In this document: positions 14,811-64,000 of the stretch, piece by piece | Layout: every line of letters begins with the position of its first letter | Position numbering within the stretch: position 1 is the stretch's first letter | Assembly: GCA_003135555.1 (NCBI GenBank) | Contig: PLCF01000085.1 | Coordinates: 184,589 to 248,588, forward strand | From: Vulcanimicrobiota bacterium | Lineage (GTDB): Bacteria; Vulcanimicrobiota; Vulcanimicrobiia; Vulcanimicrobiales; Vulcanimicrobiaceae | Direction of reading: 5' to 3' | Length of the DNA stretch: 64,000 nucleotides | The notes under the pieces: generated by a model | The model's input: only the letters and a program-made list of their open reading frames with translations | The model's database searches: none | What the model was told of the DNA's origin: nothing | Translations under genes and position numbers: made by a program

Positions 14811-14811
14811 G

Positions 14812-20744: not shown

Positions 20745-20748
20745 CGCG

Positions 20749-21117
20749 ATGATCGTAAGCGTGCTCGTACTCTGCTTCATCATCATCGCGATCTACGTAG
20801 GAAGCCATCGGCTCAACGGCGTGCAGACGATCGCGGTGATTCTGTTCTTTCTCGTCGGTGTCGTGGTCGTCGTGTTCCCTACCGTCGCCGCCGGCATTGC
20901 CGAGCATCTTGGCGTAGGCCGCGGGGTCGATCTCGTCCTGTACCTCAGCGTCGTGGGCGGCTTGTTCGTCGCTGCGAACTTCTATTTCCGCATCAAGAGC
21001 CAAGAGGACATGCTCGGTACAATGGCGCGCGAGATCGCGCTGATGGCGCCGCGGGAGCACACGGTCCATGCCGCGCCGCCCGCGGGCGACAGGCCGGCGC
21101 CCGAAGCATCCAGTTGA
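20749..21117 (+). CDS. DUF2304-like small membrane partner of the GT2
   Basis: Three hydrophobic segments, LGVGRGVDLVLY motif, C-terminal REIAL; directly after a DPM1-like GT2. Confidence 0.8.
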   Translation: MIVSVLVLCFIIIAIYVGSHRLNGVQTIAVILFFLVGVVVVVFPTVAAGIAEHLGVGRGVDLVLYLSVVGGLFVAANFYFRIKSQEDMLGTMAREIALMAPREHTVHAAPPAGDRPAPEASS

Positions 21118-21121
21118 GCAT

Positions 21122-27115: not shown

Positions 27116-27137
27116 CGGCGCGCCGGCCGAAGCGCTC

Positions 27138-28256
27138 GTGCTGATCTCCGCATTCGATTTCCGCCACAATGCGATAGGATTCTTGCGTCTTGCGTTCGCT
27201 GCGCTGGTGGTCTTCTCGCACGCTTTCACGCTGGGCGGGTTCGGCGACGACCCGGTCAGCCGCTGGAGCGGCGAGCACGAGGACTTGGGCAACATCGCGG
27301 TCGCCGGGTTCTTCGTGCTTAGCGGGTTTCTCATCACCCGCAGCGCGGAGCGCGCCCGCACGGTGCCGCGTTTCTTGTGGCACCGGTTCTTGCGCATCTT
27401 CCCAGCCTTCTGGGTGTGTCTCGTCGTTACCGCGCTCGTGCTCGCGCCGGTCGTCGCGCTGCTCGAAGGCCGCAGCCTTGCGGGATACGTCGCCGCTGCC
27501 GGCGATTCGCCGTGGCGGTACCTCGTGGTGAACGCCGATCTGACGATGCGCCAATACGGGGTCGCCGGGTTGTTGTCGCAGGTGCCGTATCCGCGCGCCT
27601 TCGACGGCTCGCTGTGGACCCTGCGGTTCGAGTTCGGTTGTTATCTCGCCGTCGCGGTGCTGGCCGCGGTCGGACTCGTACGCCGCAGGCGCTCGGTCGT
27701 CGCGGCGCTGACGGCCGCCCTCTATCTGGCCTACGCGGTTCCGGTCGCGCTCGACGGCGTCGTGAAGCTGCCGTTTCCGTTCGACGTCGTGGTGCGCGGC
27801 AACGACCGCCTCGTCGCCGAGTTGATCGTGTACTTCTTCGCCGGCGCAACGGCGTATCTGTACCGCGACCGGATCCGCTTGACACGCGCGCTGGGCATCG
27901 CGGGCGTGGTGATCTCCGCGGTGGCCCTGCACTACCCGATCTACGGGCTGGTCCTGCCGATCGGCTTCAGCGCGGCGACGCTGTGGCTGGCGGCGGAGCT
28001 TCCGTTGCGCGACGTCGACCGGCGCTTCGACCTGTCGTACGGGTTGTACATCTACGCGTTTCCGTTGCAGCAGATCGCGGCCGAGTGCGGTTTGTCGCGG
28101 CTCGGCGTCGCGGTCTCCACCGCCGTGCCACTCGCCGGTGCGCTGGCGATGGCCGCGGGGAGCTGGGTGCTCGTCGAGCGTCCGGCGCTCGCGCTCAAGG
28201 AAGCGACGCCGCCGGCGTTGCGCTGGTTGCTCGAGCCGCGGCGGGCGCGCCCGTGA
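27138..28256 (+). CDS. Acyltransferase_3 (OafA-like) membrane O-acyltransferase
   Basis: LRLAFAALVVFSH, FFVLSGFLI, RFLRIFP, LWTLRFE, SYGLYIY, VERP. Confidence 0.9.
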   Translation: MLISAFDFRHNAIGFLRLAFAALVVFSHAFTLGGFGDDPVSRWSGEHEDLGNIAVAGFFVLSGFLITRSAERARTVPRFLWHRFLRIFPAFWVCLVVTALVLAPVVALLEGRSLAGYVAAAGDSPWRYLVVNADLTMRQYGVAGLLSQVPYPRAFDGSLWTLRFEFGCYLAVAVLAAVGLVRRRRSVVAALTAALYLAYAVPVALDGVVKLPFPFDVVVRGNDRLVAELIVYFFAGATAYLYRDRIRLTRALGIAGVVISAVALHYPIYGLVLPIGFSAATLWLAAELPLRDVDRRFDLSYGLYIYAFPLQQIAAECGLSRLGVAVSTAVPLAGALAMAAGSWVLVERPALALKEATPPALRWLLEPRRARP

Positions 28257-29308
28257 CCTGGAGCGGCAAGCGCGTCCTCGTGACCGGCCACACCGGGTTC
28301 AAAGGCGCCTGGCTGGCGTGGTGGTTGTCGCGTTCCGGCGCCGCGGTGACGGGCTACGCCCTGCCGGCCGACGAGGGCCGGCCCAACCTCTTTCGCGCGC
28401 TGCGCCTCGACGCGGCGATCGAATCGGCGCTCGGCGACGTGCGCGACCGCTCCGCCGTCCGGCGGTTCGTCGAGCGGGTCAAGCCCGACGCCGTGTTCCA
28501 CTTGGCCGCGCAGGCGCTGGTGCGGGCGGCCTATGCCGATCCCGCCGGCACGTTCGAGACCAACGTGGCCGGTACGGCGGCGCTGCTCGACGCGGTCCGC
28601 ACCAGCGACTCGGTGCGCGCGGTCGTGGTGGTGACCTCCGACAAGTGTTACTTGCCGCGCAGCTCGGGCGCGCCGTACCGCGAAGACGATCCGCTGGGCG
28701 GCTACGATCCGTACGGCGCGAGCAAGGCGGCGCAGGAGATCGTCGCAGCCGCGTACCGGTCGTCGTACTTCGCCGCCGGCCCGCTGCTGGCGACCGTTCG
28801 CGCGGGGAACGTCATCGGCGGGGGCGACTGGTCCGCCGACCGTCTCGTCCCCGACGCGATCGATGCGCTCCTTGGCAAGGCACCGCTGGTGCTGCGCTAC
28901 CCCGACGCGGTACGGCCGTGGCAGCACGTGCTCGAACCGCTGCATGCCTACCTGGTCGTGGCGGAACGCCTGCTCGGCGGTGATGCCGAAGTCGCGTCGG
29001 CGTTCAACGTCGGCCCGGGCGAGTCAGGGCATCGCACCGTCGCCGAGGTGATCGACCTGCTCTACGCCGCCTGGGGACGCGCACCGGCGTGGGAGCGCGC
29101 CGCCGGCATCCAACCCGCGGAGGCCCCGGTGCTGCGACTCGATGCCGGCAAGGCGGCGCGCGCGTTGAGTATCGTCCCGCGCTTCGGCCTCGAGGTCGCG
29201 TGTCGCCGCACGGCGGAGTGGTACCGCGCATGGTCACAGGGCGCGGATGCGCGCGCGTTGTGCGACGCCGACATCGATGCGTTTGCGGGGCCCGCGTGCA
29301 ACGCTTGA
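28253..29308 (+). CDS. rfbG: CDP-glucose 4,6-dehydratase
   Basis: VTGHTGFKGAWL, HLAAQALVR, TSDKCY, RAGNVIGGGDW, RPWQHVLEPL. Confidence 0.95.
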   Translation: MTWSGKRVLVTGHTGFKGAWLAWWLSRSGAAVTGYALPADEGRPNLFRALRLDAAIESALGDVRDRSAVRRFVERVKPDAVFHLAAQALVRAAYADPAGTFETNVAGTAALLDAVRTSDSVRAVVVVTSDKCYLPRSSGAPYREDDPLGGYDPYGASKAAQEIVAAAYRSSYFAAGPLLATVRAGNVIGGGDWSADRLVPDAIDALLGKAPLVLRYPDAVRPWQHVLEPLHAYLVVAERLLGGDAEVASAFNVGPGESGHRTVAEVIDLLYAAWGRAPAWERAAGIQPAEAPVLRLDAGKAARALSIVPRFGLEVACRRTAEWYRAWSQGADARALCDADIDAFAGPACNA

Positions 29309-30528
29309 CCTGCCGAGGCTGCGGCGCCGTGGTGAGCGAGTCGCTGGTCGATCTCGGGATGCAGCCGCTGGCGAACGCCTACATCGCTCCGGAGCACGCC
29401 GCGAGCGCCGAGACGTTCTACCCGTTGCACCCCATGGTGTGCGGGCGGTGCTACTTCGTGCAACTCGGCGTGTTCGAAACGCCGGAGCGCATCTTCGGCG
29501 ACTACGCGTACTTCTCGTCGTTCTCGACCTCGTGGCTCGAGCATAGCCGCGCGCACGTCGAGCGCGCGATCGGCCGGCTCGGCCTGGGCGCCCGCTCGTT
29601 CGTAGTCGAGGTCGGCAGCAACGACGGCTATCTGCTCAAGGCGTTCGTCGAGCGTGACATCCCGGTGCTGGGCGTCGAGCCGGCAGCCAACGTCGCGGAG
29701 GAGGCCCGCCGCAACGGGGTTCCGACGCGGACCGCCTTTTTCGGCGCCGCCGAGGCCGACCGCATCGTCGCGGAGCACGGACGCGCCGCGATGATGATCG
29801 CGAACAACGTGCTGGCGCACGTGCCCGACATCCACGACTTTGTCGAAGGCTTCCGCCGCGTGCTGGCGCCCGAAGGGATAGCGACGTTCGAGTTTCCGCA
29901 CCTGCTGCTGCTGCTCGAGCAGACGGAGTTCGACACGATCTATCACGAGCATTTCAGCTACCTCTCCCTGCTCGCCGTCGAGCCGGTGTTCGCGGCGCAT
30001 GGTTTGCGCGTTGTCGATGCGGAGCGCATCCCGACGCACGGCGGCTCGTTGCGGCTGTGGGTCGGGCACGCGGGAGCGGCCCGCGCGCCGGCACCGGCGG
30101 TCGAGGCGCTGCGAGCGCTCGAGCGCGAGGGCGGCTTGGCCGATCTGCGCACCTACGCCGCGTTCGCGCCGCGGGTCCACGCGATCAAGAACGAGCTCCT
30201 GCGCTTTCTCATCGACGCCGCTGCGAACGGGAAACGCGTCGTAGGCTACGGCGCGGCGGCCAAGGGGAACACGCTGCTCAACTACTGCGGGATACGCAGC
30301 GACCTGGTGCCGTTCGTGGTCGATCGCAACCCGCACAAGCAGGGCTGCTTGCTGCCGGGGAGCCGGCTGCCGGTCGAGGCGGTCGAACGCCTGCGCGAGG
30401 CGCGCCCCGACTACGTGCTGGTCCTGCCCTGGAACCTGACCGCCGAGATCACCGCGCAGATGGCCTTCGTGCGCGGCTGGGGCGGACGCTTTGTGACGGC
30501 GGTTCCACACTTGGCGGTGTTGCCGTGA
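29296..30528 (+). CDS. NDP-sugar C-methyltransferase (TylC3/NovU-like)
   Basis: CRGC and CGRC Zn motif, DLGMQPLAN, EVGSNDG, YHEH, GYGAAAKG, LPWN. Confidence 0.9.
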   Translation: MQRLTCRGCGAVVSESLVDLGMQPLANAYIAPEHAASAETFYPLHPMVCGRCYFVQLGVFETPERIFGDYAYFSSFSTSWLEHSRAHVERAIGRLGLGARSFVVEVGSNDGYLLKAFVERDIPVLGVEPAANVAEEARRNGVPTRTAFFGAAEADRIVAEHGRAAMMIANNVLAHVPDIHDFVEGFRRVLAPEGIATFEFPHLLLLLEQTEFDTIYHEHFSYLSLLAVEPVFAAHGLRVVDAERIPTHGGSLRLWVGHAGAARAPAPAVEALRALEREGGLADLRTYAAFAPRVHAIKNELLRFLIDAAANGKRVVGYGAAAKGNTLLNYCGIRSDLVPFVVDRNPHKQGCLLPGSRLPVEAVERLREARPDYVLVLPWNLTAEITAQMAFVRGWGGRFVTAVPHLAVLP

Positions 30529-43917: not shown

Positions 43918-44862
43918 TTAGAGGATCGTGACCGACCCGGTCTTGGTCCCGTCGCCGCCCGCGTTTGCGCCGAGCCAGTTGTTGTTCCCGGTCAGCATCG
44001 TGCTGCCGGCGTCGGTCGACATGCCGATGCCGTTGTTGAAGTAGATGCTCGTGTTGGTCACGCGCATCGTCCCGCTGGCGGTCGCGTGCACGCCGAAGAC
44101 TTGATTGTTCGACACCGTCGACAAATCGATGCTGATCAAGCTGGTTGCGCCGTTGGCTTCGACGCCGCCGCCCGCATTGTTCGAGACCATCGAATTGTGG
44201 ATGTTGACGTCGCTGTTCGACGTTGCCTGAACCCCAAGGCCCGAGCGCTGGATCGTCGACTTCTCGACGTTAATACGATTCGTACCGCTGGTCGTGGACG
44301 ACTTGATGCCGCCGCCCGCGCAATTTTCGAGATTCGTACTGTACATGATGAGGTTCATGGAGTTCGCCGGCTGGAAGTTGACGCATTGCTGCGTGAAGTT
44401 CTCGATGTCGACGTGCTCGAGGGCGACGTTCTTGCCTTGCAGCACGTTGATCCCAACCAATCCGGTAACGCTGCCGTTGCCGGCGCCGTTGATGTCGAGG
44501 TTGCGGATGACGTCGTAATTGCAGTTCACGCTCGAGTTGTTGATGATGATCCCGTTCGTGCCGCTGGCCAGAATCGACGCGACCATACCGGCTTCGCCGC
44601 CGCCGCCGTCGATCTTGATGCCCTTGGTGATGGTGACCGCGCCGAACCCGCCCGGATCGAGCGCGTCGATCTCACCGCAGTCGGCGGTCTTGGAGATGGC
44701 GCCGGCAAAGGTCTTGCACGGTGCGGTGCGGCTGCACGGGTTGACGTCGTCGCCGACGCCCGAAACCCACGTGCGGGTGGCCTGCGCCGACGCGTGCGAC
44801 GTCATGGCTAAGAAGCACAGGGCAAACGCCGCAAAGACAAAGGAGAAAATGCTACGCTTCAT
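43918..44862 (-). CDS. Secreted right-handed parallel beta-helix (pectin-lyase-fold) protein, copy 1
   Basis: Sec signal ending ASA; QATRTWVSGVGDDVNPCSRTAPCKT; Asn/Ser/Gly-rich stacking repeats. Confidence 0.85.
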   Translation of the reverse strand: MKRSIFSFVFAAFALCFLAMTSHASAQATRTWVSGVGDDVNPCSRTAPCKTFAGAISKTADCGEIDALDPGGFGAVTITKGIKIDGGGGEAGMVASILASGTNGIIINNSSVNCNYDVIRNLDINGAGNGSVTGLVGINVLQGKNVALEHVDIENFTQQCVNFQPANSMNLIMYSTNLENCAGGGIKSSTTSGTNRINVEKSTIQRSGLGVQATSNSDVNIHNSMVSNNAGGGVEANGATSLISIDLSTVSNNQVFGVHATASGTMRVTNTSIYFNNGIGMSTDAGSTMLTGNNNWLGANAGGDGTKTGSVTIL

Positions 44863-44888
44863 GGTCATCCTCTTTGAAAACATTGGCT

Positions 44889-44952
44889 TTGGGAAAGTGG
44901 GCAACCTAAGGGGGGCCTGACTTCGTTTGCCGAGCCCTGACGCCTTCCGCTC
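44889..44952 (-). promoter_or_regulatory. Conserved 64-bp upstream element, copy 1
   Basis: Ungapped match to 46030-46093 and 47174-47237. Confidence 0.7.
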
Positions 44953-45001
44953 CCGCTGACACCCTGGGCTGGGGTAGCGCACGACCGCTCGGTGGGTGGG
45001 C

Positions 45002-45041
45002 AAAAAAAACCGCGACGAGCTCGGCCGAGCCCGCCGCGATT
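45002..45041 (-). terminator. Intrinsic terminator after beta-helix copy 2
   Basis: ATCGCGGCGGGCTC-GGCC-GAGCTCGTCGCGG followed by T8. Confidence 0.85.
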
Positions 45042-45060
45042 CGGGTCGTACGCGAAGACG

Positions 45061-45993
45061 TTAGAGAATCGTGACCGACCCGGTCTTGGTCCCGTCGCCG
45101 CCCGCGTTTGCGCCGAGCCAGTTGTTGTTCCCGGTCAGCATCGTGCTGCCGGCGTCGGTCGACATGCCGATGCCGTTGTTGAAGTAGATGCTCGTGTTGG
45201 TCACGCGCATCGTCCCGCTGGCGGTCGCGTGCACGCCGAAGACTTGATTGTTCGACACCGTCGACAAATCGATGCTGATCAAGCTGGTTGCGCCGTTGGC
45301 TTCGACGCCGCCGCCGGCATTGTTCGAGACCATCGAGTTGTGGATGTTGACGTCGCTGTTCGAGGTCGCCTGAACCCCGAGGCCCGAGCGCTGGATCGTC
45401 GACTTCTCGATGTTGAGGCGGTTCGTGCCGCTGGTGGTGGACGACTTGATGCCGCCGCCCGCGCAGTTTTCGAGATTCGTGCTGTACATGATGAGGTTCA
45501 TCGAGTTCGCCGGCTGGAAGTTGATGCATTGCTGCGTGAAGTTCTCGATGTCGACGTGCTCGAGGGAGACGTTCTTGCCCGCGACCACGTTGATGCCGAC
45601 CGTCCCCGACTGGACGCCGTTGATGTCCAGGTTCCGGATAACGTCGAATTGGCAATTCGGGCTACTGTTGTTGATGGTGATCCCCGGGACGCCGGCGGCC
45701 AGAATCGACGCGACCTGGCCGGCTTCGCCGCCGCCGCCGTCGAGCTTGATGCCCTTGGTGATCGTGACCGTGCCGAACCCGCCCGGATCGAGCGCGTCGA
45801 TCTCGCCGCAGTCGGCGGTCTTGGAAATCGCGCCCGGCCACGTCTTGCACGGTGCCGTGCGGCTGCACGGGTTGGCGTCGTCGCCTACGCCCGAAACCCA
45901 GGTCCGGGTGGCCTGCGCCGACGCTTGCGACGTCATCGCGCAGAAGCACAGGGCAAACGCCGCAAAGACAAAGTAGAAAATGCTACGCTTCAT
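45061..45993 (-). CDS. Secreted parallel beta-helix protein, copy 2
   Basis: Paralogue of copies 1 and 3; MKRS start. Confidence 0.85.
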   Translation of the reverse strand: MKRSIFYFVFAAFALCFCAMTSQASAQATRTWVSGVGDDANPCSRTAPCKTWPGAISKTADCGEIDALDPGGFGTVTITKGIKLDGGGGEAGQVASILAAGVPGITINNSSPNCQFDVIRNLDINGVQSGTVGINVVAGKNVSLEHVDIENFTQQCINFQPANSMNLIMYSTNLENCAGGGIKSSTTSGTNRLNIEKSTIQRSGLGVQATSNSDVNIHNSMVSNNAGGGVEANGATSLISIDLSTVSNNQVFGVHATASGTMRVTNTSIYFNNGIGMSTDAGSTMLTGNNNWLGANAGGDGTKTGSVTIL

Positions 45994-46029
45994 GGACATC
46001 CCTCTTCGAAAATCGGTTTGAAAAACCGG

Positions 46030-46093
46030 TTGGGAACGTGGGCAACCTAAGGAGAGGCTGACTTCGCTTACCGAGCCCTGGCGCCTTCCGCTC
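46030..46093 (-). promoter_or_regulatory. Conserved 64-bp upstream element, copy 2
   Basis: GAGCGGAAGGCGCCAGGGCTCGGTAAGCGAAGTCAG...TAGGTTGCCC...CCAA. Confidence 0.7.
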
Positions 46094-46132
46094 GGGGTAC
46101 CTCGCGACGGACGGCGCGTAACACGCGGTAAC

Positions 46133-46176
46133 AAAAAGGAATCCGCGCCGAGCTCGCGTGAGCCCGTCGCGGATTC
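46133..46176 (-). terminator. Intrinsic terminator after beta-helix copy 3
   Basis: GAATCCGCGACGGGCTC-ACGC-GAGCTCGGCGCGGATTC followed by CTTTTT. Confidence 0.85.
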
Positions 46177-47237: not shown

Positions 47238-47338
47238 CTGATCACACTTTGCCGTAGTATCCTCAAGCGCGTTCACGGCCGCAGTACGTTCATCGGCACG
47301 CTCCCCGGTCGAAGTATGGACCGCGGCAATGTCGCGCA

Positions 47339-47366
47339 GCTTACGTGCGCTTACGACAGCATTACG
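47339..47366. promoter_or_regulatory. Three TTACG direct repeats at 10-11 bp spacing (candidate regulator site)
   Basis: GCTTACG-TGC-GCTTACG-ACA-GCATTACG in the divergent intergenic region. Confidence 0.4.
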
Positions 47367-47463
47367 AAGCGACAATTGTTCGCAGCGCCGAGCGGCGAGC
47401 CGGGCGCGGCCGAACGATTCGGTGGCGGAACGCGCCCGGCGGGCCCGGAACGCTCGGGTCTTC

Positions 47464-49008
47464 ATGGAACTGCGGATCGATCGTGAGGCGGTCGCGCGGG
47501 CGCGCCGGCTCGCCGGTGCGATCGTCGACCCCGTCGAGGACTTCATCGAGCGCCACTCGACGGTAAGCGTCGAGCGGGCGGTTGCCCGTTTGTGCGGCGT
47601 CGACGGCGTCGACGCCGCCGGCGTTCCGCTCGCCAACCGGTTGATCGACGCCCTTCCGGCGCGCGAGGCCGGCGTCGCCCGCGCGCTCGGCGCGGCGATC
47701 GCCGAAAGCGGCCGAACGCCGCAGCAGGTCGCCGCTGCGGTCGCCGCCGGCGAGGCGCTGCCGGACCCGGCGGGCACGCCCGAAACGGCGCTGCGGGCCG
47801 CGCTGCGCGTTCACATCGATGCCGGGCTGGCGCGCATCGACGCGGCGCGGGCGCTGCGGACCGCGCTGCTGGCCCGGCTGCCGCAGGGCGAGCCGCCGCT
47901 GCTCTACGTGATCGTCGCGAGCGGCAACATCTACGAAGACCGCACCGCCGCGGTCGCCGCGGCCGAAGGCGGCGCACAGATCGTGGCCGTGATCCGCTCG
48001 ACGGCGCAGTCGCTGCTCGACTACGTTCCGTTCGGCGCCACGACCGAGGGCTTCGGCGGAACCTACGCGACCCAGGAAAATTTCCGCCTCATGCGCGCCG
48101 CGCTCGATGAAGCGTCGGAGCGGTTGGGGCGCTACGTGATGCTCACCAACTACGCCAGCGGCCTGTGCATGCCGGAGATCGCGGCGCTGGCGGCGCTCGA
48201 GCGGCTCGACATGCTGCTCAACGACTCGATGTACGGCATCCTGTTTCGCGACATCAACATGCAGCGGACGTTCGTCGACCAGCACTTCTCGCGCCAGCTC
48301 AACGCGCGTAGCGGGATCGTGATCAACACCGGCGAGGACAACTATCTCACGACCGCCGATGCGGTGGAGCAAGCGCCCGCGGTGCTGGCGTCGCAGTTCG
48401 TCAACGAAGCGTTCGCACGCCGCGCCGGGCTCCCCGCCGCTCAGATGGGTCTGGGCGACGCCTATGAGATCGACCCCGACCTCGAGGACGGGTTCTTGCT
48501 CCAAGTCGCGCAAGCGCAGCTGACGCGGCAGATCTTCCCCGACGCGCCGCTCAAGTACATGCCGCCGACCAAGCACATGACGGGGAACATCTTCAAAGGC
48601 CACTTGATCGACGCCATGTTCAACCTCACGTCGGTCATGACGCATCAAACGATCCACCTGTGCGGGATGCTGACCGAGGCGATTCACACGCCGTTCCTGG
48701 GCGACCGCGCGCTGGCGCTCGAGAACGCGCGTTACGTGATGACCACGGCGCGCCACTTCGGGGACGAGATCGAGATCAAGGCCGGCGGGCGGATCGAGCT
48801 GCGCGCCCGTGACGTGCTCAGCGGGGCGGTCCGCATCCTCGACGGCGTCGCGCAGCGCGGATTGATGCGGGCGATCGAAGACGGGACGTTCGCCGACATT
48901 CGGCGGCCGCGCGACGGCGGCCGCGGTTACGACGGCGTGTTCGCGAAGGACGCGGCGTATTGGAACCCGTTCGCCGACGCGCTCGCCGGCGGTGCGGTCC
49001 CGGCGTGA
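47464..49008 (+). CDS. kamD: Lysine 5,6-aminomutase alpha subunit
   Basis: HSTVSVER, YVIVASGNIYED, IRSTAQSLLDY, NYASGLCMPE, INTGEDNY, KYMPPTK. Confidence 0.93.
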   Translation: MELRIDREAVARARRLAGAIVDPVEDFIERHSTVSVERAVARLCGVDGVDAAGVPLANRLIDALPAREAGVARALGAAIAESGRTPQQVAAAVAAGEALPDPAGTPETALRAALRVHIDAGLARIDAARALRTALLARLPQGEPPLLYVIVASGNIYEDRTAAVAAAEGGAQIVAVIRSTAQSLLDYVPFGATTEGFGGTYATQENFRLMRAALDEASERLGRYVMLTNYASGLCMPEIAALAALERLDMLLNDSMYGILFRDINMQRTFVDQHFSRQLNARSGIVINTGEDNYLTTADAVEQAPAVLASQFVNEAFARRAGLPAAQMGLGDAYEIDPDLEDGFLLQVAQAQLTRQIFPDAPLKYMPPTKHMTGNIFKGHLIDAMFNLTSVMTHQTIHLCGMLTEAIHTPFLGDRALALENARYVMTTARHFGDEIEIKAGGRIELRARDVLSGAVRILDGVAQRGLMRAIEDGTFADIRRPRDGGRGYDGVFAKDAAYWNPFADALAGGAVPA

Positions 49009-49739
49009 GCCTCGTGCGGCCGTACGGCGACACGCGGGACGACGGCGCCGTCCAGCTGTCGTTTACCCTGCCGATCGCGTGGGACGAAGCCGCGGACGAA
49101 GCGGCGCGCCAGCTCGTAGCCAAGATGGGGTTCAGCGACGTCTCGGTCGTCGAGGGCCGGGCGATCAGCGCCGGCTTCTCGTTCTTCGTCGTCTACGCGC
49201 GCACGCTGGTCGCCGTCGACGCCTCGACGATCCGAGCGCCGTCCGCGACCGGCGCCGCCCTGTCGATCGAGCAGGTCGACGAGCTGATCGCGCGGCGGGT
49301 CGGCCGCAAGCTCAAGGTCGTCGGCGCGTGCATCGGGACGGACGCGCATACGGTAGGGATCGACGCGATCCTGAACATGAAGGGCTACAAGGGCGACTAC
49401 GGTTTGGAGCGGTATCGCGGGTTCGAAGTGTTCAATCTGGGCAGCCAGATCGCGGTCGAGGATCTCGTGCGGTTCGCACGCGAGCGCGACGTCGATGCCA
49501 TTCTGGCCTCGCAAGTCGTCACCCAGAAGGGCAGCGACATCGCCAACTTCACCGCGCTCGCAGAGCTGCTGGAAGCCGAAAACATGCGCGAAGGGCTGGT
49601 ACTGATCGCCGGCGGACCGCGCGTGACGAACCTGTTGGCCGCCGAGCTCGGTTACGACGCCGGATTTGGCCGCGGGACCATGCCCGGCGATGTCGCGAGA
49701 TTCATTGCGTTGCGGATCGCGTCAGCGCGTAACGCCTAG
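49005..49739 (+). CDS. kamE: Lysine 5,6-aminomutase beta subunit (AdoCbl-binding)
   Basis: RPYGDT.DDG.VQLSFTLP dimerisation domain; DAHTVG (DxHxxG); NMKG PLP Lys. Confidence 0.93.
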   Translation: MSLVRPYGDTRDDGAVQLSFTLPIAWDEAADEAARQLVAKMGFSDVSVVEGRAISAGFSFFVVYARTLVAVDASTIRAPSATGAALSIEQVDELIARRVGRKLKVVGACIGTDAHTVGIDAILNMKGYKGDYGLERYRGFEVFNLGSQIAVEDLVRFARERDVDAILASQVVTQKGSDIANFTALAELLEAENMREGLVLIAGGPRVTNLLAAELGYDAGFGRGTMPGDVARFIALRIASARNA

Positions 49740-54737: not shown

Positions 54738-56555
54738 GTGCCGGTTCCTTGCAAATATGCCGCATTGCTCGCGGACTGGCTCTGCGACCTCGGCTACACC
54801 CACTGCTTCTTCGTCGCCGGCGGCAACATCATGCATCTTCTGGATGCTGCTCGAACGCGCTTCACCTGCGTCGCGGTCGTGCACGAGGTTACTGCCGGAG
54901 TCGCGGTCGAGTACTTCAACGAGATTCGCGGCGCCCAAGGCGGCCGCGCGTTCGCCTTGGTCACCGCCGGTCCCGGCCTTACCAACATCGTCACGGCCTT
55001 GGCCGGAGCGTTCCTGGAGAGCCGCGAGCTCTTGGTGCTCGGTGGCCAGGTCAAGTCGACCGATCTCGCCGGCCCGACGTTGCGTCAGCGCGGGATCCAG
55101 GAGATCGACGGCATCGCGCTCGCGAAGCCGGTGACCGTCGTCGCCGAACGGATCGAACGGCCGGTGGACCGCGCAACGTTCACGCGACTCGTCGGACGCG
55201 GCGAACAAGCGCGAAAGGGACCGGTCTTTCTCGAGATCTGTCTCGATGCGCAAGGCGCCCCCGTCGATCGCAGCGACCTCGAACGCAACGACGCGTCGCG
55301 TCCCCCCGCCGTGGGTGCAAAGCAGGCCGCTGCAGCGCGGAGCGCTGCGCCGCAGGTTGCGGCGCTGGTTCGCGACGCTGCGCGTCCGGTGGTCTTGCTG
55401 GGCGGAGGGTTCTCGCGCGCGGCCGCATCGCGGCTGCGCGCCTCACTGCGCTCGATGGACGTCCCGGTGATGACGACGTGGAACGCCACCGATCGTGTCG
55501 ACGCGCGCGATCCGCACTACGCGGGACGGCCGAACACCTTCGGCCAGCGTTCTGCCAACGTGCTCATCGCGCAAGCCGATTGCATCGTCGCCGTAGGCAC
55601 CCGGCTGGGGCTGCAGCAGACGGGGTTCAACCACGAGGCGTTCGCGCCGCTCGCCACGGTGGTGCAGGTCGACATCGACGAGGCCGAGCTGACGAAGGGT
55701 CATCCGAGGGTCGACGTCGCGGTGCCCGGCGATGCGGACGCGTTCATGGAGGCGCTCCTCGAGCACGATCTGGGCAGGCATGGCGAGTGGCTCGCGTTTT
55801 GCCGCTTCGTGCGCACGCGCTTGCCGCCGGCGGACCCCGAGAACGTGCATTCACCCGAATACCTCGATCCGTTCGCGTTCATGCAAACCTTGTCGCGGCT
55901 GTGCGACGAGCGCGATCTCATCGTCCCGTGTTCGAGCGGCGGCGCGTTCACGACGGCGATGCAAGCGTTCGATCAGCGCTTCGGCCAAGCCGTGGTGACC
56001 GACAAAGGACTTGCCGCGATGGGGTACGGGCTCCCCGGAGCGATCGGGGCGGCGTTTGCGGGGGGCGGACGCCGGACGATTCTCTGCGACGGCGACGGCG
56101 GCTTCAGCCAAAACCTCCAAGAGCTTGCCACCGTTGCCGTCAATCGGCTGCCGATCAAGATCTTTCTCATGAGCAACGAAGGGTACGCCTCGATCCGAAT
56201 GACCCAGCGGAACTACTTCGAAGGCGGCTATCTCGGCTGCGACATACAGAGCGGGCTGGGTTTCCCGAACTGGGACATGCTGTTCCGCGCGTACGACGTT
56301 CCGCTGTTCGTGCTGGGCGCGGACTGGGAACACGACCCTGCGATCCGCAGCGCGATGCGATCCGACGGGCCGGCTGGATTCCTGGTGCCGGTGGATCCCG
56401 AACAGACGTACTACCCGAAGATCACCAGCCGCGTCACCGCGAGCGGCTCGATGGAGTCCGCTCCGCTTCACCTCATGAGTCCGCCGCTGGCGCCGGACGT
56501 CTCGGCCGACGTGCTTCCGTACCTCCGCGCCCACGAGAGCCCGATACCGTCGTGA
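54738..56555 (+). CDS. ThDP-dependent carboligase (acetolactate synthase/YerE-like)
   Basis: VHE catalytic Glu, [20 protein letters not shown]...SNEGY ThDP motif. Confidence 0.9.
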
Positions 56556-57355
56556 ACAAGACCGAGCGCCGGATGGTCGAGATCCTCGAGCAAGGCGCCG
56601 GCGCGTACGGATACGTCTCGGTCAAGGCCGAGTTCGAAGCCGAGGGGACGCGTCCCGACGAGCTGCTGCGGCTCGTCGAGATCGCGTCGCGCGCCGGCCT
56701 GCCGCTGACGGTCAAGATCGGCGGCTGCGAAGCGATGCGCGACCTGCTCGAGGCCAAGCAGATCGGCGTCCGTTACATCGTCGCTCCGATGGTCGAAACG
56801 CCGTACGCCCTTTCGAAATACATCGCCGCGAAGGAGACGGTATTCAACCCGGACGAGGCGCAGGATGCGGACTTCCTCTTCAACCTGGAGACGATCACCG
56901 GCTACCAGCATCGCGCCGCCTTGGTCGAGCTCGCCGCGGCGCGTCCCGGCGTCGACGGCATCGTGTTCGGCCGGGTCGACTTCGTCGGCTCGACCGGCCG
57001 CGACCGCATGACCATCAACGACGACGACGTCACGAACCACGTGCTCGAGACGGCGAAGCTGTGCCGCGCGGCCGGCCTCGACTTGGTCGTCGGCGGCGGC
57101 ATCTCGCGCGATGCCGTTCCGGCGCTGCGGCGGGTTCGGAGCGAGCACTTGACGCGCTTCGAGACGCGCAAGGTGGTCTTCGGTGCGGCCGCCCTGGACG
57201 GCCCCGGGATCGAACAGGGGCTGCTCAACGCGGTGCACTTCGAATTGCTCTGGTTGATCAACAAGCGCGAGTACTACGGTGCGATCCACGGCGAGGACGC
57301 GCGGCGCATCGACATGCTGGAGAGCCGTTGGAACGTTCTGAAGCAACGGACGTAG
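56552..57355 (+). CDS. HpcH/HpaI aldolase/citrate lyase-family protein
   Basis: [35 protein letters not shown] overlaps the upstream stop. Confidence 0.75.
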
Positions 57356-58029
57356 GGGCGGCGCCCGGATCGGTTTTCATCACCGGCGCGGCGCGCGGGC
57401 TCGGCGCGGCGATCGCGCGCCGCTTCCGCGCCGCGGGGCGCACGGTCGTCGCCCCAACGCGGGCCGAGCTCGACCTCGCCGACCCGGAGTCGGTGCGCCG
57501 TTTCATCGGGCGTCCCGATCTCGAGGCGGTGGATGTCTTGATCAACAACGCCGGCGAGAACGTGTTGGGGACGATCGAGGCTCTGCCCGAAGCGCAGCTG
57601 CGCCGGATGTTTGAGACCAACGTCCTCTCCGCGTGGTCGCTGACGCGGGCGTTGGGCGGGATGATGTGCGCGCGCGGGCGCGGGCACATCGTGAACATCG
57701 CCTCGGTCTACGGGATCAAGAGCCGCCGTGCCCGGGGCGCGTACACCGCGACCAAGGCTGCGCTCATCGGGTTCACGAAGTCGGCCGCCATCGAATTCGG
57801 TCCGCACAACGTCTTGGTCAACGCCGTCGCGCCAGGTTTCGTCGACACCGAGCTGACGCGCAGGAACAACACGCCGGAGCAGCTCGAAGCGCTGTGCGGG
57901 ATGGTGCCGCTCGGGCGGCTGGCGCAGCCCGACGAGATCGCGCACCTGGTGTATTGGCTGTGCTCCGCGGAGAACACGTACGTCACGGGGCAGACGGTGG
58001 TGATCGACGGGGGATTCTTGGTTCAATGA
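57328..58029 (+). CDS. SDR oxidoreductase (FabG-like); start approximate
   Basis: [28 protein letters not shown]. Confidence 0.9.
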
Positions 58030-59108
58030 CGTCGACCGACGCGTTCATCGTCGCCTCCGCGCAGGGCGACTATCGGGTCGACTCGTTCGACCGCCTCGAC
58101 GCCCTGCTGGCCGAAATCGTCCGGATCGACGGCGCCATCGTGGTCGCGGACGAGCGCGTGGCCGAACTCTACCGCGACGCGTTTGCCGCGCTCGGCGACA
58201 TCCCGGTTTACCGGCTGGCCGCGACCGAGCGCGAGAAGACCCTCGCCGGCGTCGAGCGCGTGATGCTATCGATGCAGGCGACGGGTGCCGGCAAGCGCAG
58301 CGTCGTCGTCGGCATCGGCGGCGGGATCGTTCAAGACGTGGCGACGCTCGCTGCGCACCTCTGGTTTCGCGGTATCGAGTTCGTCTTCGTTCCCACGACG
58401 CTCTTGGCCATGGCCGACAGCTGCATCGGCGCTAAGAGTGCGGTGAACCTGGGAGCTTTCAAGAACCAGATCGGCACGTTTCACTCACCGTCCCGCGTGC
58501 TGATGTGCCACCGGTTCGCCGCCACGCTTTCGGACGACGACGTCCGGTCCGGCTATGGTGAGATGGTCAAGCTCGCGATCATCGACTCCGCGGCGCGGTT
58601 CGCCGAGCTCGAGCGCGACGTCGAGGCGGGCGGATTTCGCGGACCGCGTCTGGATCGGCACATCCGCGCCAGCCTCGAGACCAAGCGACGGATCATCGAG
58701 GTCGACGAGTACGAGCGCGATCTGCGCCGAGTGCTCAACTACGGTCACACCTTCGGCCACGCGCTGGAATCCGTCACCGACAACGCCGTACCGCACGGGT
58801 TGGCCGTCGCATGGGGCGTCGACGTCGCAAACTTCATTGCCATGCGCAACGGGTACTTCGCCGAGGCCGGCTATGCGCAGGTACACCGCTTCCTGGCGGC
58901 AGCCTTCGCGCTGCGCCCGGCCGCCGCGTACGGCGCCGCCGGACTGCTCGAGGCGATTCGGCGCGACAAGAAAGCCGCATCGGGAAGCGTCAAGCTCATC
59001 CTGCCCTACGGCTGCGGCGACGTTCGCGTGGTTTCGACGGCGATCGATGCGAAGCTCGAAGCGCACATCGATGCGTACCTCCGCACCGACGACATCTTTG
59101 CGCGCTGA
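58026..59108 (+). CDS. AroB-related sugar-phosphate cyclase (3-dehydroquinate synthase family)
   Basis: GGGIVQD, PTTLLAMADSCIGAKS, KNQIG, GEMVK, LNYGHTFGHALE, PHG. Confidence 0.88.
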   Translation: MTSTDAFIVASAQGDYRVDSFDRLDALLAEIVRIDGAIVVADERVAELYRDAFAALGDIPVYRLAATEREKTLAGVERVMLSMQATGAGKRSVVVGIGGGIVQDVATLAAHLWFRGIEFVFVPTTLLAMADSCIGAKSAVNLGAFKNQIGTFHSPSRVLMCHRFAATLSDDDVRSGYGEMVKLAIIDSAARFAELERDVEAGGFRGPRLDRHIRASLETKRRIIEVDEYERDLRRVLNYGHTFGHALESVTDNAVPHGLAVAWGVDVANFIAMRNGYFAEAGYAQVHRFLAAAFALRPAAAYGAAGLLEAIRRDKKAASGSVKLILPYGCGDVRVVSTAIDAKLEAHIDAYLRTDDIFAR

Positions 59109-59109
59109 C

Positions 59110-60150
59110 ATGCCGGACCTCGCAACTCCCCGCCCGCGCAAGCTGATCTCCATCGTCACGCCGCTCTACAACGAGAGCGCGAACGTGGAGGAACTGGCGC
59201 GACGCCTGGGTGCCGTATTCGACCTGTGCGCGGAGCGCTACGACTTCGAGGTGATCGCGGTCGAGAACGGGTCGGCCGACGACACCTATGAGAAGCTCCT
59301 CGCCGTGCGCGCGCACGACCCGCGCTGGAAAGTCATCCAGCTTTCGCGCAACTTCCAGATGGAGGGCGGCATGACCGCGGGGCTGTCCGCGGCGCAGGGT
59401 GACGCGGCGGTGATCATGGCGGCCGACCTGCAAGACGCCCCCGAGCTCATCCCGCGCTTCATCGAGAAGTGGGAGGCGGGCTACGAGAACATCTATCAGG
59501 TAATCAGCCGGCGCCCTGACGAAAGCCGGTTCCGGCGCTTCGCCGCAGCGACGTTTTACCGCATCATCAACCGGGTCAGCGACACGCCGGTACCTCGGAA
59601 TGCCAGCGACTTCCGGCTTGTCGACCGGCTCGTGTACCGCGCCTTCAACCGGCTCGGAGAGCGGAACCGCATGGTGAGAGCGATGTGGGGGTTCATCGGT
59701 TTTCGCTCGTGCGGCATCGAGGCCGAACGTGCGCCTCGGCACGGCGGCAGATCGAGTTACAACTTTCTTCTGTCCGTGTCGTTCGCGCTGCGGGGAATTC
59801 TGTCGTCGTCCAACGTTCCGCTCAAGATCATCCCGTTCTTGGGGGCGGCGTGCGCGCTGCTGTCGTTCGTGATCCTGGTGGGCGTCGTCGCGCGCGCCTA
59901 CCTCTACGGCGTGCCGTTCGATGGCTTCGGAACGATCACCGGGCTGATGCTGATGCTCTTCGGTTTCTTGTTCCTGCTGCTCGGACTCGTTAGCGAGTAC
60001 ATCGGCATGATCTACCACGAGACGCGCCACCGTCCGTCGTTCATCGTGCGCTCGGCCCACGGCTTGGCGACGGAGGATTTGCTGGGGGAACCTTTAGGTG
60101 ACGGCGCCGCGGTGCCAGCGCAGCGTTCGGTCGAGAGCGCCGGCGAGTGA
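59110..60150 (+). CDS. Undecaprenyl-phosphate glycosyltransferase (GtrB/ArnC-like GT2)
   Basis: VTPLYNE, ENGSAD, LSRNF, AADLQDAP, SDFRLVDR, two C-terminal TM helices, EYIG.IY.E...RP. Confidence 0.9.
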   Translation: MPDLATPRPRKLISIVTPLYNESANVEELARRLGAVFDLCAERYDFEVIAVENGSADDTYEKLLAVRAHDPRWKVIQLSRNFQMEGGMTAGLSAAQGDAAVIMAADLQDAPELIPRFIEKWEAGYENIYQVISRRPDESRFRRFAAATFYRIINRVSDTPVPRNASDFRLVDRLVYRAFNRLGERNRMVRAMWGFIGFRSCGIEAERAPRHGGRSSYNFLLSVSFALRGILSSSNVPLKIIPFLGAACALLSFVILVGVVARAYLYGVPFDGFGTITGLMLMLFGFLFLLLGLVSEYIGMIYHETRHRPSFIVRSAHGLATEDLLGEPLGDGAAVPAQRSVESAGE

Positions 60151-61134
60151 GGTGCGTTCGCGCAGGCCGAGCTCCGCGCGCGCGCGTGCCGTCGACGGGA
60201 CGTAGCGATGGGCCGGCCCCGATGCCTCCGCTGGGCCGCGGATCTCGATCTGCGGACTGCGGCCCGAGGCGCTGGCCACGGCTTGGGCGAGCTCGACGAC
60301 CGATACGCCGTGTTCCGAACCGACGTTGTAGGCGCGACCTGCCGAACCTCGGGCCAGGATTCGCCACAGCCACGTCGTCAAGTCCGCGGCGTAGAGATAA
60401 GACCTGACCGCGTTTCCGCTGCCGCTCACCACGATCGGCCCCGACCCGATTGCGTCGCGGATGAAGTTCCCGACGGCGAAGTGCGTGTCGATCGGAAGAT
60501 ACGGCCCCACGAAGGTGAAGAGGCGCGCGACCTTCACGGCCGGCCCGCCTGACGCGGCTGCGATCGCGCCGAGCAGTTCGGCGCAGCGCTTCCCTTCGTG
60601 ATAGGCCTCGCGCGGTTGGAGCGGATCCGGGCCGCCGCCGTATTCCTCGCCGACATGTGAGAGATCGGCCGGCTGGCGGCCGTAGACGGCGCCCGAGCTG
60701 GTGAACAGAAATGGAATCGCGCCGCTGCGCGCCGCGACGGCGAGGGTCGCACGCTGACCGGCCACGATCGTGTCGATCATCTCGGCGGGCCGGCTCTCGT
60801 TGAGCGCCGCGCTGGCCGGCGTTGCGGCATGCAAGACCGCGTCGTACGTTCCACGGTCGGGCGCCGCGTCGCGGACGTCACCGCGAATCAGCGTGACCCC
60901 CGGCGCGTTCGCGATGGCCGGCGAACGGCGCGCAAATGCGTCCGGGTCACGGGTCAGCACGTCGAGGCGGATCGACGTCGCGAGATGGTTGTTTGCGTGC
61001 ACGGCCGATGCCAGAAACCAGGTGCCGACGAACCCGGTTCCACCGGTGACGTAGAACCGCGTTCCGCGGAACACCGCGATGTCCGATTCGGCATCCTCGA
61101 CGACCTCGTCCAGGTCGGAGGCGAGCGAGATCAC
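60094..61134 (-). CDS. NAD-dependent epimerase/dehydratase (extended SDR)
   Basis: [31 protein letters not shown]. Confidence 0.88.
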
Positions 61135-62474
61135 TTCGAGACGTCGGCCGTAGCGGGAGCTTCCACGATCGCGCGAGCGATGAACTCGATCTCCGGGTCG
61201 CCGAGGCCCGGAAAGGTTCCAACCCAGAAAACGTCGTTCATGATCACGTCGGCGTTCACCAGTTCGCCGACGCTGCGATAGGCAACGTTCGCGTACGCGG
61301 GCTGATGCACGAGGTTGCCGGCGAAGACGAGCCGCGTTCCGATCTTGCGATCGGTAAGGCGCGCGACGAGCGTGTTGCGATCGATCGGCGCGCCCGGCAG
61401 GACGCGGATCGGAAAGCCGAACCACGACGACGATCCACCCTGCGCTTCGCCCGGAAGCCCCACCCATGGGACGTCGGAGAGCAGTCCGAAGAGCCGTTGC
61501 GCATTGCGCTTGCGGTCCGCGATGAAGCCGTCGATCTTCTCGAGCTGTGCGACGCCGACCGCGGCTTGCATGTCCGTCAGCTTGAGGTTGTAGCCGAGAT
61601 GGGTGTACGTGTACTTGTGGTCGTAGCCGTAGGGCAAATCGCCGAGCTGCCAGTCAAAGCGCTTGCCGCACGTGTTCTCCTTGCCCGGCGCACACCAGCA
61701 ATCGCGTCCCCAGTCGCGGAACGATTCCACGATCTTGCGGAGTTTCGGCGAGCGCATCAGCACCGCTCCGCCCTCGCCCATCGTCAGATGATGCGCCGGG
61801 TAGAAGCTGACGGTCGCGAGATCGCCGAAGGTCCCGACCTGCGCGCCGTTCCAGGTCGCTCCCACCGCGTCGCAGGTGTCCTCGATCATCCAGAGGTCGT
61901 GCCGGCGGCAAAAGTCGCGCAGCGCTTCGGGATCGTACGGATTCCCCAGCGTGTGCGCGAGGATGACGGCCTTGCTGCGGGGCGATATCGCGCGCTCGAA
62001 CTGCGTGAGATCGGCATTGTACGTCGTCAGCTCGCTGTCGACGAAGACCGGGATGCAGCCGGCTTGCACGATCGGGTTCACGGTGGTGGGAAAACCCGCC
62101 GCCGCCGTGATCACCTCATCCCCCGGGCGTAGCCGGCGTTCGCCCAGTTCCGGCGACGTCAGCGCCATCAAGGCGCACAGATTCGCCGACGACCCCGAGT
62201 TCACGAGGACGCACTCGCGCACGCCGAACCAGCTTGCAAACTCCTTCTCGAAGCGCGACGCGTAGCGACCGGCGGTCAGCCAGAAGTCGAGCGAGGCGTC
62301 GACGAGCGCCACCAGCTCGCGTTCGTCGAACGTTCGCCCGCTGACGGGGACGGCGTCCTCGTCGGGTCTGAAGCTGCGCTCCTCGTACGCCGCGCGGAAG
62401 TACGTCCGCGTGCGGGCGAGGATGTCGTTGCGAAGACGTTCGGCCTCGGAGCTGTTGCTCTTGTCGCGAAGCAT
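61131..62474 (-). CDS. rfbH: CDP-4-keto-6-deoxyglucose 3-dehydrase (E1, DdhC)
   Basis: [22 protein letters not shown] (His in place of Lys), WGRDCWC....NTC Fe-S motif, YDHKY. Confidence 0.95.
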
Positions 62475-62612
62475 CAGGTGAGTCGCGTGGTACCCGGGAG
62501 ATCGAGGGGGTCGAAGCCGTTCACGCGGCCGGTATTCTGCGGCCTCGTGCTGATCGCCCGCGCCGCCCCCCCGGGACTTCCGATGCCGCACGGCCAAAGT
62601 CACCCGCTAGCT

Positions 62613-64000
<1,388 letters not shown>

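Follow-up and report, generated by a model that had tools for sequence, protein, structure and literature searches.

In a 64,000-nucleotide stretch of DNA from a Vulcanimicrobiota bacterium (assembly GCA_003135555.1, contig PLCF01000085.1, positions 184,589 to 248,588; hereafter, the window), five coupled genes (g1-g5) encoding a thiamine diphosphate (ThDP) enzyme, an aldolase, a short-chain dehydrogenase/reductase (SDR), a protein of the 3-dehydroquinate synthase (DHQS; AroB) family, and a family 2 glycosyltransferase (GT2) face an extended SDR gene (g6) and rfbH (g7). Together with rfbF and rfbG, these genes probably constitute a pathway for an acyl-branched sugar of the caryophyllose type. 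By analogy, the product would most likely be a 3,6-dideoxyhexose with a long branch at C4, because a sub-locus of Mycobacterium marinum is annotated with the same genes in a matching order. We further propose, tentatively, that the DHQS-like proteins of the TIGR04425 clade, to which g4 belongs, may act with the coupled SDR as a non-cyclising "terminal deoxygenase" for sugar acids, the 6-keto intermediate being trapped by reduction before ring closure to give 3,7-dideoxyheptulosonate. This type of pathway has already been published, and the cassette is widespread; the scientific interest lies in a directly testable step by a DHQS-family enzyme, given that the known product of this pathway contains no carbocycle.

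Gene organization and family assignments

Seven genes were delimited at 54738-62474 by open reading frame (ORF) listing, inspection of start codons, and family scans. They are listed below with rfbF and rfbG, whose positions are those of matches to hidden Markov models (HMMs).

54738-56555, plus strand: g1, ThDP enzyme with all three TPP domains, 605 amino acids
56552-57355, plus strand: g2, HpcH/HpaI-like aldolase, 267 amino acids
57328-58029, plus strand: g3, classical (FabG-like) SDR, 233 amino acids, TTG start
58026-59108, plus strand: g4, DHQS-like protein of the TIGR04425 clade, 360 amino acids
59110-60150, plus strand: g5, GT2, probably of the GtrB/ArnC/PgfS type, 346 amino acids
60094-61074, minus strand: g6, extended SDR, candidate nucleoside diphosphate (NDP)-sugar ketoreductase (YerF-like role)
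61131-62474, minus strand: g7, RfbH/E1, cytidine diphosphate (CDP)-4-keto-6-deoxy-D-glucose 3-dehydrase, 447 amino acids
about 26318-27088 (HMM match; contig C58:210906-211676), plus strand: rfbF, glucose-1-phosphate cytidylyltransferase (TIGR02623, 366.2 bits, cut-off 300.25)
about 28259-29284 (HMM match; contig C58:212847-213872), plus strand: rfbG, CDP-glucose 4,6-dehydratase (TIGR02622, 418.2 bits, cut-off 278.45)

The operon g1-g5 (54738-60150, plus strand) is translationally coupled, with overlaps of 4, 28, and 4 nt between the first four genes and a 1-nt gap between g4 and g5, and g5 runs convergently into g6, the two sharing 57 nt at their 3′ ends. An earlier, sequence-only reading of this DNA had described a coupled five-gene operon converging on rfbH between positions 54738 and 62474, which are exactly the starts of g1 and rfbH. 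The coupling was borne out, and it is the extended SDR gene g6 that the operon faces first, with rfbH behind it. That reading had also cited RfbF, RfbG, and RfbH as background, to which the correction must be added that rfbF and rfbG both lie inside the window, 26-29 kb in. Taken as a whole, the window is a single large surface-glycan region: besides rmlA/rmlB and genes of the heptose type, it carries numerous GT2 and methyltransferase genes, one for a sugar C-methyltransferase, and one for a second polyprenyl-phosphate glycosyltransferase; the glycan genes stop after gmd, downstream of the window. The source genome is assembled into 98 contigs totalling 3.57 Mb and is 84% complete.

g1 carries all three TPP_enzyme domains of Pfam. 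The NCBIfam models for acetohydroxyacid synthase (AHAS) scored at most 225 bits on g1 against cut-offs of 538-738, the best of them 225 against 738. In the PDB ranking, 8rph (293 bits over 584 residues) preceded 5ahk (186.7 bits), which we take to be YerE of Pseudomonas protegens, and the Escherichia coli AHAS I entry 6lpi (176.6 bits). The structure 8rph is that of JanthE, a ketone-accepting lyase of the YerE-like kind for which no physiological substrates are known (PMC12188165). Like JanthE, g1 is a member of the decarboxylase superfamily that has a middle domain; the two proteins differ in the ThDP motif, which is CDG in JanthE (PMC12247030) and GDG in g1. By family, g1 is assigned to the ketone-accepting YerE-like ThDP lyases; the proposal that it is YerE-like and not an AHAS was upheld, since JanthE and 5ahk outscore AHAS and the AHAS equivalog scores are far below their cut-offs. 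Among the 57 window ORFs scanned with Pfam, a non-exhaustive set, no AHAS small-subunit family was detected, and the reported lack of ilvN and shikimate genes nearby was confirmed for the same set.

For g2, PF03328 scored 22.8 bits, slightly under its cut-off of 25, and a plain-sequence PDB search returned nothing meaningful. g2 has a great many relatives, 6958 of 8000 scored candidates matching at E <= 1e-5; the best 120 homologues are at least 69% identical to g2 and mostly match PF03328, and some are labelled "aldolase/citrate lyase family protein" by NCBI. When a 20-sequence profile of the family was used for the PDB search, HpcH/HpaI aldolases accounted for 10 of 12 matches, and the invariant residues E113 and D143 aligned with the metal-ligand motifs of these aldolases. 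The AlphaFold model of g2 had a predicted local distance difference test (pLDDT) score of 91, and its top Foldseek matches were SbnG, HpcH/HpaI, GarL, and YfaU. As judged from the family profile and the predicted fold, g2 is a divergent HpcH/HpaI-family class II (pyruvate) aldolase, in agreement with its original designation as an aldolase. g3 matched Pfam adh_short_C2 (156 bits), with all NCBIfam SDR models below their cut-offs, and a g3 homologue was found directly upstream of the DHQS-like gene in every gene-mapped cassette locus.

The best NCBIfam model for g4 was TIGR04425 (326.8 bits, below the cut-off of 400), a hypothetical equivalog named [quoted passage not shown]; of nine further cassette members scored on this model, seven exceeded the cut-off, with 403.7-472.1 bits. 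On TIGR01357, the aroB model, g4 scored 247.3 bits, below the cut-off of 305, whereas a second DHQS-family gene of the same genome, on contig C22, passed with 312.8 bits. The genome thus has a separate housekeeping aroB, the presence of which had been named as a check on the identity of g4. In a FastTree phylogeny of 76 sequences, the 19 cassette proteins formed one clade (support 0.992) apart from 39 AroB-like and 17 other sequences, the genome's own aroB included, and the clade was again single (support 0.973) in a second tree that included the clade members found outside cassettes. The phylogeny, likewise proposed as a check, thereby set the cassette clade apart from AroB-like sequences.

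The sequence-only reading was also correct in stating that g4 keeps the NAD and metal motifs of AroB: the Gly-rich NAD motif and the metal ligands are present. Equivalents of R130, D146, K152, N162, E194, K197, K250, R264, N268, H271, H275, H287, and K356 were found in g4; we take these to be the DHQS residues (Aspergillus nidulans numbering) with catalytic, metal, phosphate, and carboxylate roles. The positions so assigned are invariant across the cassette clade, which has further invariant residues of its own (Q103, S132, C133, G178, E228, Y239, and F243). The presumed phosphate/carboxylate set (equivalents of K152, N162, K250, R264, N268, H275, and K356) is kept in g4 and in all 19 clade members first examined, and two other DHQS-family paralogues (G001 and G002) differ at the K250, R264, N268, and K356 positions; G001, G002, and G004 each also carry a true aroB. 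Because the DHQS substrate-binding residues are invariant in the clade, its predicted substrate is most likely similar to 3-deoxy-D-arabino-heptulosonate 7-phosphate (DAHP), i.e., a 3-deoxy-2-ulosonate 7-phosphate. The PDB scores of g4 were 112-148 bits for DHQS entries, 120 for BtrC, 108 for ValA, and 91 for DDGS. A cyclase of the EEVS, DDGS, EVS, or DOIS type was considered for g4 and rejected, as the DHQS residues are unaltered and ValA and DDGS score below the DHQS entries. Compared with AroB (TIGR01357; PDB 3clh, 3qbd, and 1dqs), g4 has the fold family, the NAD and metal motifs, and the substrate-binding residues in common, but it scores below the aroB cut-off and falls in a clade with its own invariant residues. 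Unlike housekeeping AroB, it is an accessory, patchy gene coupled to sugar genes in a genome in which a true aroB is also present. A separate DHQS-family group that keeps the catalytic residues was observed at L057-L075 (17 loci, mostly from Bdellovibrionota and Acidimicrobiia), with W126, H134, and Q168 (window g4 numbering) as its own invariant residues.

g5 matched PF00535 with 87 bits, and its best NCBIfam models were PgfS (209 bits) and ArnC (135.7 bits), both below cut-off. Two C-terminal hydrophobic segments were predicted at residues 236-254 and 270-288. By family assignment, g5 is probably a GtrB/ArnC-like GT2 of the polyprenyl-phosphate type, which agrees with the earlier suggestion that the GT2 loads the product on a lipid carrier. 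g6 matched Pfam Epimerase with 113 bits and gave weak matches to 4,6-dehydratase (90 bits) and GalE (59 bits) models. g7 scored 667.5 bits on NF011936 against a cut-off of 423. Its full-length match to the E1 structures 3bcx/3bb8 reached 514 bits versus 181 bits for ColD, and the SFYPAHH (His-for-Lys) stretch and a C-x-C-x7-C cysteine cluster are conserved in the g7 alignment; the identification as rfbH therefore holds, g7 being a true E1 orthologue. With RfbF, RfbG, and RfbH all above their NCBIfam cut-offs in the window, the three proteins could, on their family assignments, supply CDP-4-keto-3,6-dideoxy-D-glucose. At 26318-30528 of the window, rfbF and rfbG have as neighbours an Acyl_transf_3 ORF and a gene for a sugar C-methyltransferase of the TylCIII type (PF08421/PF08484), which suggests either that a second CDP-sugar is made and C-methylated or that the branched sugar itself is methylated.

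Distribution of the cassette and comparison with branched-sugar systems

A scan for g4 relatives in one genome per prokaryote species matched 146 stretches, 73 of which encode a relative; the scan works by peptide patterns of the query, and distant relatives may be missed. A tblastn search with nine window proteins revealed operon neighbours at 18 loci (L003-L019 and L040), which span Eremiobacterota, Chloroflexota, Sericytochromatia, Microcystis (n = 5), Verrucomicrobiota, Myxococcota, Oligoflexia, and Gemmatimonadota. Seven loci (L038, L043, L052, L053, L058, L059, and L069) were left out, their second match being weak, several kb away, and only 25-31% identical to a DegT, SDR, or ThDP gene. 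Among 301 genomes of the window's phylum, 12 matched TIGR04425 (E <= 1e-80), 7 of which showed the cassette context, and this sample added five further cassette loci; L103, on the same contig as L004, was left out. A sample of 401 Actinomycetota genomes, aimed at mycobacterial loci, gave one partial match.

The count was made over 24 cassette loci, the window included, and a gene was scored if it lay within 12 kb of the DHQS-like gene and above bit thresholds; several contigs are short, so that absences are soft. An SDR accompanied the DHQS-like gene in 24 of 24 loci, the ThDP enzyme in 21, the aldolase in 19, and a GT2 in 19, and a NeuB-family gene replaced the aldolase in 3. An extended SDR was present in 13 of the 24, RfbH in 9, a GtrA-like gene in 7, and rfbF and rfbG in 5 each. 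Because the same genes occur together in 24 loci of several phyla, the operon arrangement is far beyond chance. Within the window's phylum, rfbF and rfbH are directly beside the cassette in L096, L097, and L098, as is rfbG in L096 and L098. L099 has the order rfbF-rfbG-rfbH-NeuB...GT2-SDR-DHQS-kinase-ThDP, with NeuB in place of the aldolase. An FGGY kinase gene adjoins the DHQS-like gene in two of the three NeuB loci, as follows, and none was found in the window.

L099:7940-9259, minus strand: FGGY kinase (48.6 bits, above cut-off)
L005:5402-6454, plus strand: FGGY-type kinase (24.1 bits, below cut-off)

In a Verrucomicrobiae metagenome-assembled genome (MAG), the ThDP enzyme and the aldolase are fused in a single ORF of 875 amino acids (P0121; L010:4703-7330, plus strand), and in L004 and its kin the GT2 gene is embedded within the operon. 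The GT2 genes of the relatives neighbour GtrA-like genes, genes for Pfam-less proteins with 7-12 hydrophobic segments, or GT87 genes; a GT2 with a GtrA-like protein and a polytopic partner is the usual make-up of polyprenyl-phosphate sugar decoration. The window yielded no homologue of the GtrA, GT-C-like, NeuB, FNR-like, or kinase-like genes present in the relatives. In an Eremiobacterota MAG (L003:3780-7980), the homologues of the ThDP enzyme, the aldolase, and the SDR each gave two high-scoring segment pairs in different frames, owing to frameshifts or assembly errors.

The closest counterpart with a known product was found in the lipooligosaccharide (LOS) locus of M. marinum. In the supplement of PMC12395582, MMAR_2332 is annotated as ThDP-binding, MMAR_2331 as an aldolase/citrate-lyase family protein, MMAR_2330 as a short chain dehydrogenase, MMAR_2329 as a DHQS-family protein, MMAR_2328 as a putative sugar kinase, and MMAR_2327 as a GT87; MMAR_2333, MMAR_2334, MMAR_2335, and MMAR_2336 are annotated as a GT2, rfbF, RfbH, and CDP-glucose 4,6-dehydratase, respectively, and aroB (MMAR_2177) is elsewhere in the genome. 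Mutants of mmar_2331, mmar_2332, and mmar_2333 lack caryophyllose (PMC9306805, PMC5706390). This sugar is 3,6-dideoxy-4-C-(D-altro-1,3,4,5-tetrahydroxyhexyl)-D-xylo-hexopyranose, and its linear side chain is 2′-deoxy and 6′-deoxy (PMC5706390). The sub-locus MMAR_2327-2336 and the window have the same annotated gene set, with the housekeeping aroB elsewhere in both, and the order MMAR_2332-2331-2330-2329 equals g1-g2-g3-g4 provided that these genes all run in one direction; for MMAR_2330 and MMAR_2333, the strand listed is the complement. The two loci differ in that the M. marinum DHQS-family gene has a sugar kinase gene beside it and that of the window has none, and in that rfbF/rfbG of the window are separated from the operon by about 30 kb and its rfbH has an extended SDR gene as a neighbour, unlike in the M. 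marinum sub-locus. The host phylum is also distant from M. marinum, where the carrier glycan is LOS.

The joining of an aldolase-made keto acid to a CDP-keto-sugar by the ThDP enzyme, as the sequence-only reading had it, follows the logic of a published "unifying scheme" (Steitz et al. 2022, PMC9306805), in which aldolase-made alpha-keto acids serve as ThDP-enzyme donors onto CDP-4-keto-3,6-dideoxyglucose or a mimic. The scheme covers erwiniose (ErwE/F/I/J), gastriose (MyGE/MygI/MygF), a C6-branched sugar of Rhodopseudomonas palustris, and yersiniose A (YerE/YerF) (PMC9306805), and, according to a review, the catalogued YerE-like biosynthetic gene clusters number more than 200 (PMC12247030). 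The route proposed for the window and the scheme are alike in the aldolase-made alpha-keto acid, the YerE-like ThDP enzyme, CDP-4-keto-3,6-dideoxyglucose, and the NAD(P)H reductase. The scheme differs in that it names no DHQS-family enzyme (0 mentions in the main text and supplement of PMC9306805) and in that its caryophyllose donor is proposed to be made from pyruvate and a ready-made C4 aldehyde (PMC9306805); in addition, ErwI is a BphI-type aldolase, whereas g2 is of the HpcH type. In our literature search, no text paired caryophyllose with dehydroquinate, and none assigned a role to the DHQS-family gene. The word "dehydroquinate" is absent from Steitz et al. (PMC9306805) and from the review PMC12247030, and MMAR_2329 and MMAR_2330 are unmentioned in the main text of three M. 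marinum/M. kansasii papers (including PMC5706390).

Proposed route and alternative explanations

In the proposed route, RfbF, RfbG, and RfbH would supply CDP-4-keto-3,6-dideoxy-D-glucose as the acceptor. g2 would condense pyruvate with erythrose-4-phosphate or a similar aldehyde to a DAHP-like 3-deoxy-heptulosonate 7-phosphate; in other loci, NeuB would carry out the condensation with phosphoenolpyruvate, accompanied by the FGGY kinase in two of three loci. g4 may then catalyze NAD-dependent oxidation at C5, elimination of phosphate, and re-reduction, as DHQ synthase does, after which g3 would reduce the resulting 6-ketone, turning the phosphorylated end into CH3-CHOH. The 3,7-dideoxyheptulosonate formed in this way would be the donor giving the 1,3,4,5-tetrahydroxyhexyl branch. 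As in work on ErwE, MMAR_2332, and MyGE, g1 would decarboxylate the keto acid and add the acyl anion to C4 of the CDP-keto-sugar, and the branch ketone would be reduced by a reductase, here probably g6. Finally, g5 would load the finished sugar on polyprenyl phosphate for transfer to the surface glycan.

Several observations are consistent with this route. The alternation of aldolase and NeuB and the adjoining kinases fit the formation of a 7-phospho keto acid from which phosphate is then eliminated, and the two reductases, g3 of small-molecule type and g6 of NDP-sugar type, fit the two ketoreductions needed. The 2′-deoxy and 6′-deoxy positions of the caryophyllose chain are as expected from a 3,7-dideoxyheptulosonate donor, and the ThDP-aldolase fusion in L010 ties both enzymes together. 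The analysis itself yields family assignments; from these we infer what g2 uses as its substrate, that the g4 reaction ends without cyclisation, and what each of the two reductases does. The AroB-like enzyme had been suggested to deoxygenate or cyclise the chain: deoxygenation appears to be the best reading of the cassette, and the carbocycle found no support.

A number of points weigh against the route, some of which concern ring closure by g4. To our knowledge, no member of the DHQS family stops before cyclisation, and g4 keeps every DHQS residue. Clade members also occur outside cassettes, as "solo" genes, in four low-GC genomes of the window's phylum (G022, G033, G037, and G043); they nest within the cassette clade and keep the clade-specific residues, and the three contexts scanned (L100-L102) are housekeeping, adjoining an NAD(P)HX repair gene or that of prolyl-tRNA synthetase (ProRS). 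In G022, G033, G037, and G015 (genomes 89-99% complete), a clade member was the sole DHQS-family gene found, and that of G015 is its cassette gene. All four have aroC, and three (two of G022, G033, and G037 among them) have an aroA that scores above cut-off; across the five low-GC/G015 genomes checked, the figures were four of five for aroC and four of five for aroA. No type II DHQS was found in these genomes. Because it provides the only DHQS-family gene in genomes with aroC and aroA and lacking a detectable type II DHQS, the TIGR04425 clade can presumably supply dehydroquinate, i.e., cyclise, and the solo genes are real evidence against a strictly non-cyclising enzyme. Bartlett and Knowles are said to have found that the DHQS intermediate, once released, cyclises to dehydroquinate spontaneously; since the released intermediate would close by itself, the solo genes are compatible with the proposed route. 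The solo genes were located at L100:9725-10789 (G022), L101:8906-10207 (G033), and L102:7633-8946 (G037); two of the three directly follow the NAD(P)HX repair (Nnr) gene, and two have an N-terminal extension of about 80 amino acids. A NeuB-like gene as the only DAHP synthase of G015 was considered and dropped, as a PF00793 gene is present in every genome of the set.

The remaining points against the route concern its other steps. The fusion in L010 would better fit a direct hand-off from the aldolase to the ThDP enzyme than two intervening steps. No GtrA-like or GT-C gene stands beside g5 in the window, and no E3 reductase was found in the window's 84%-complete genome with one FNR-like query. 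A true RfbH was present in only one of five cassette genomes without a nearby rfbH, these being MAGs that may be incomplete; because RfbH was found in one of the five, the acceptor keto-sugar probably varies among cassettes and is not always 3-deoxygenated. The match to M. marinum is one of annotation names and gene order, not of alignments, and the product is a predicted one.

The most serious competitor, though an unlikely one, is a carbocyclic product, in which the DHQS-like enzyme would cyclise the phosphorylated chain, free or attached to the sugar, to give a caryose- or bradyrhizose-like sugar or a quinate-like branch. In its favour are the full retention of the DHQS catalytic residues in g4, the apparent role of clade members as the sole DHQ synthase of some genomes, and the "(cyclizing)" of the NCBIfam clade name; a 2016 paper gave the bradyrhizose genes as unknown (PMC4743980). 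It is opposed by the M. marinum locus, where the same four gene families make caryophyllose with its linear side chain; on this ground the carbocyclic option of the sequence-only reading was judged unsupported. Moreover, cyclised dehydroquinate is not an alpha-keto acid and would offer no ThDP donor, no conserved enzyme of the cassette appears able to join dehydroquinate to a sugar, and the 73 related loci from the peptide-pattern search, which may miss distant relatives, included none from Bradyrhizobium or Burkholderia. For bradyrhizose, an 11-gene cluster has been named in a text without DHQS, thiamine, or aldolase (PMC4743980), and no link between bradyrhizose and the cassette was found.

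Somewhat less probable is the explanation that two unrelated modules lie side by side, one for a 3,6-dideoxyhexose or a yersiniose-like, acetyl-branched sugar and the other, consisting of the aldolase, the DHQS-like enzyme, and the SDR, for a separate metabolite of dehydroquinate or quinate type. The absence of RfbH from four of the five tested cassette genomes without a nearby copy and the presumed ability of the clade to act as DHQ synthase would suit such a division, and the extended SDR might simply reduce a CDP-4-keto-3,6-dideoxyhexose. Tight coupling in the order ThDP-[aldolase]-SDR-DHQS-like is kept in distant phyla, however, with the GT2 inside the operon in L004 and its kin and the ThDP enzyme and aldolase fused in L010, and M. 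marinum mutants of the aldolase and of the ThDP gene both lose caryophyllose (PMC9306805). That g4 and g1 are the shikimate AroB and the acetolactate synthase of primary metabolism is very improbable. Pfam and NCBIfam do place them in those superfamilies, but a separate aroB above cut-off is on contig C22, both proteins stay below the respective cut-offs (247 vs 305 for g4 on aroB; 225 vs 738 for g1 on AHAS), neither ilvN nor shikimate genes were seen nearby in the ORF set scanned, and both genes belong to a glycan locus in which they are coupled to a GT2.

If the deoxygenation proposed for g4 and g3 is correct, the sugar-phosphate-cyclase superfamily would gain a new type of reaction outcome, and the methyl end of caryophyllose-type side chains, the origin of which has been missing, would be accounted for in bacteria from Mycobacterium to Microcystis. 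Long-branched sugars such as caryophyllose are surface antigens and have been reported to modulate host responses in M. marinum. Such chemistry is probably widespread among uncultured bacteria of soil and water, including Eremiobacterota, Microcystis, Myxococcota, and Verrucomicrobiota. For annotation, the cassette suggests the rule that an "acetolactate synthase" and a "3-dehydroquinate synthase" beside rfbH and a GT2 are to be regarded as sugar enzymes and not as amino-acid enzymes.

Other features of the glycan region

Further genes of the window were recorded in the course of the analysis.

12220-16784, minus strand: transaldolase-like gene, SIS isomerase, nucleotidyltransferase, HddA-like GHMP kinase, and Gfo/Idh/MocA oxidoreductase; this block looks like an NDP-heptose pathway
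19860-23233: second polyprenyl-phosphate system, with a PpgS-like GT2 (207.5 bits, below cut-off), a DUF2304 gene, and a Pfam-less protein of 703 amino acids with 9 hydrophobic segments
62478-63284, plus strand: PilZ-domain protein (58.9 bits) between rfbH and gmd, a possible link of cyclic di-GMP to glycan synthesis; the relative L097 has rfbF at this place
47329-49739, plus strand: D-lysine 5,6-aminomutase alpha subunit (772 bits) and B12-binding beta subunit, in the middle of the glycan region
43918-46134, minus strand: two tandem paralogous right-handed beta-helix proteins of 361 and 357 amino acids

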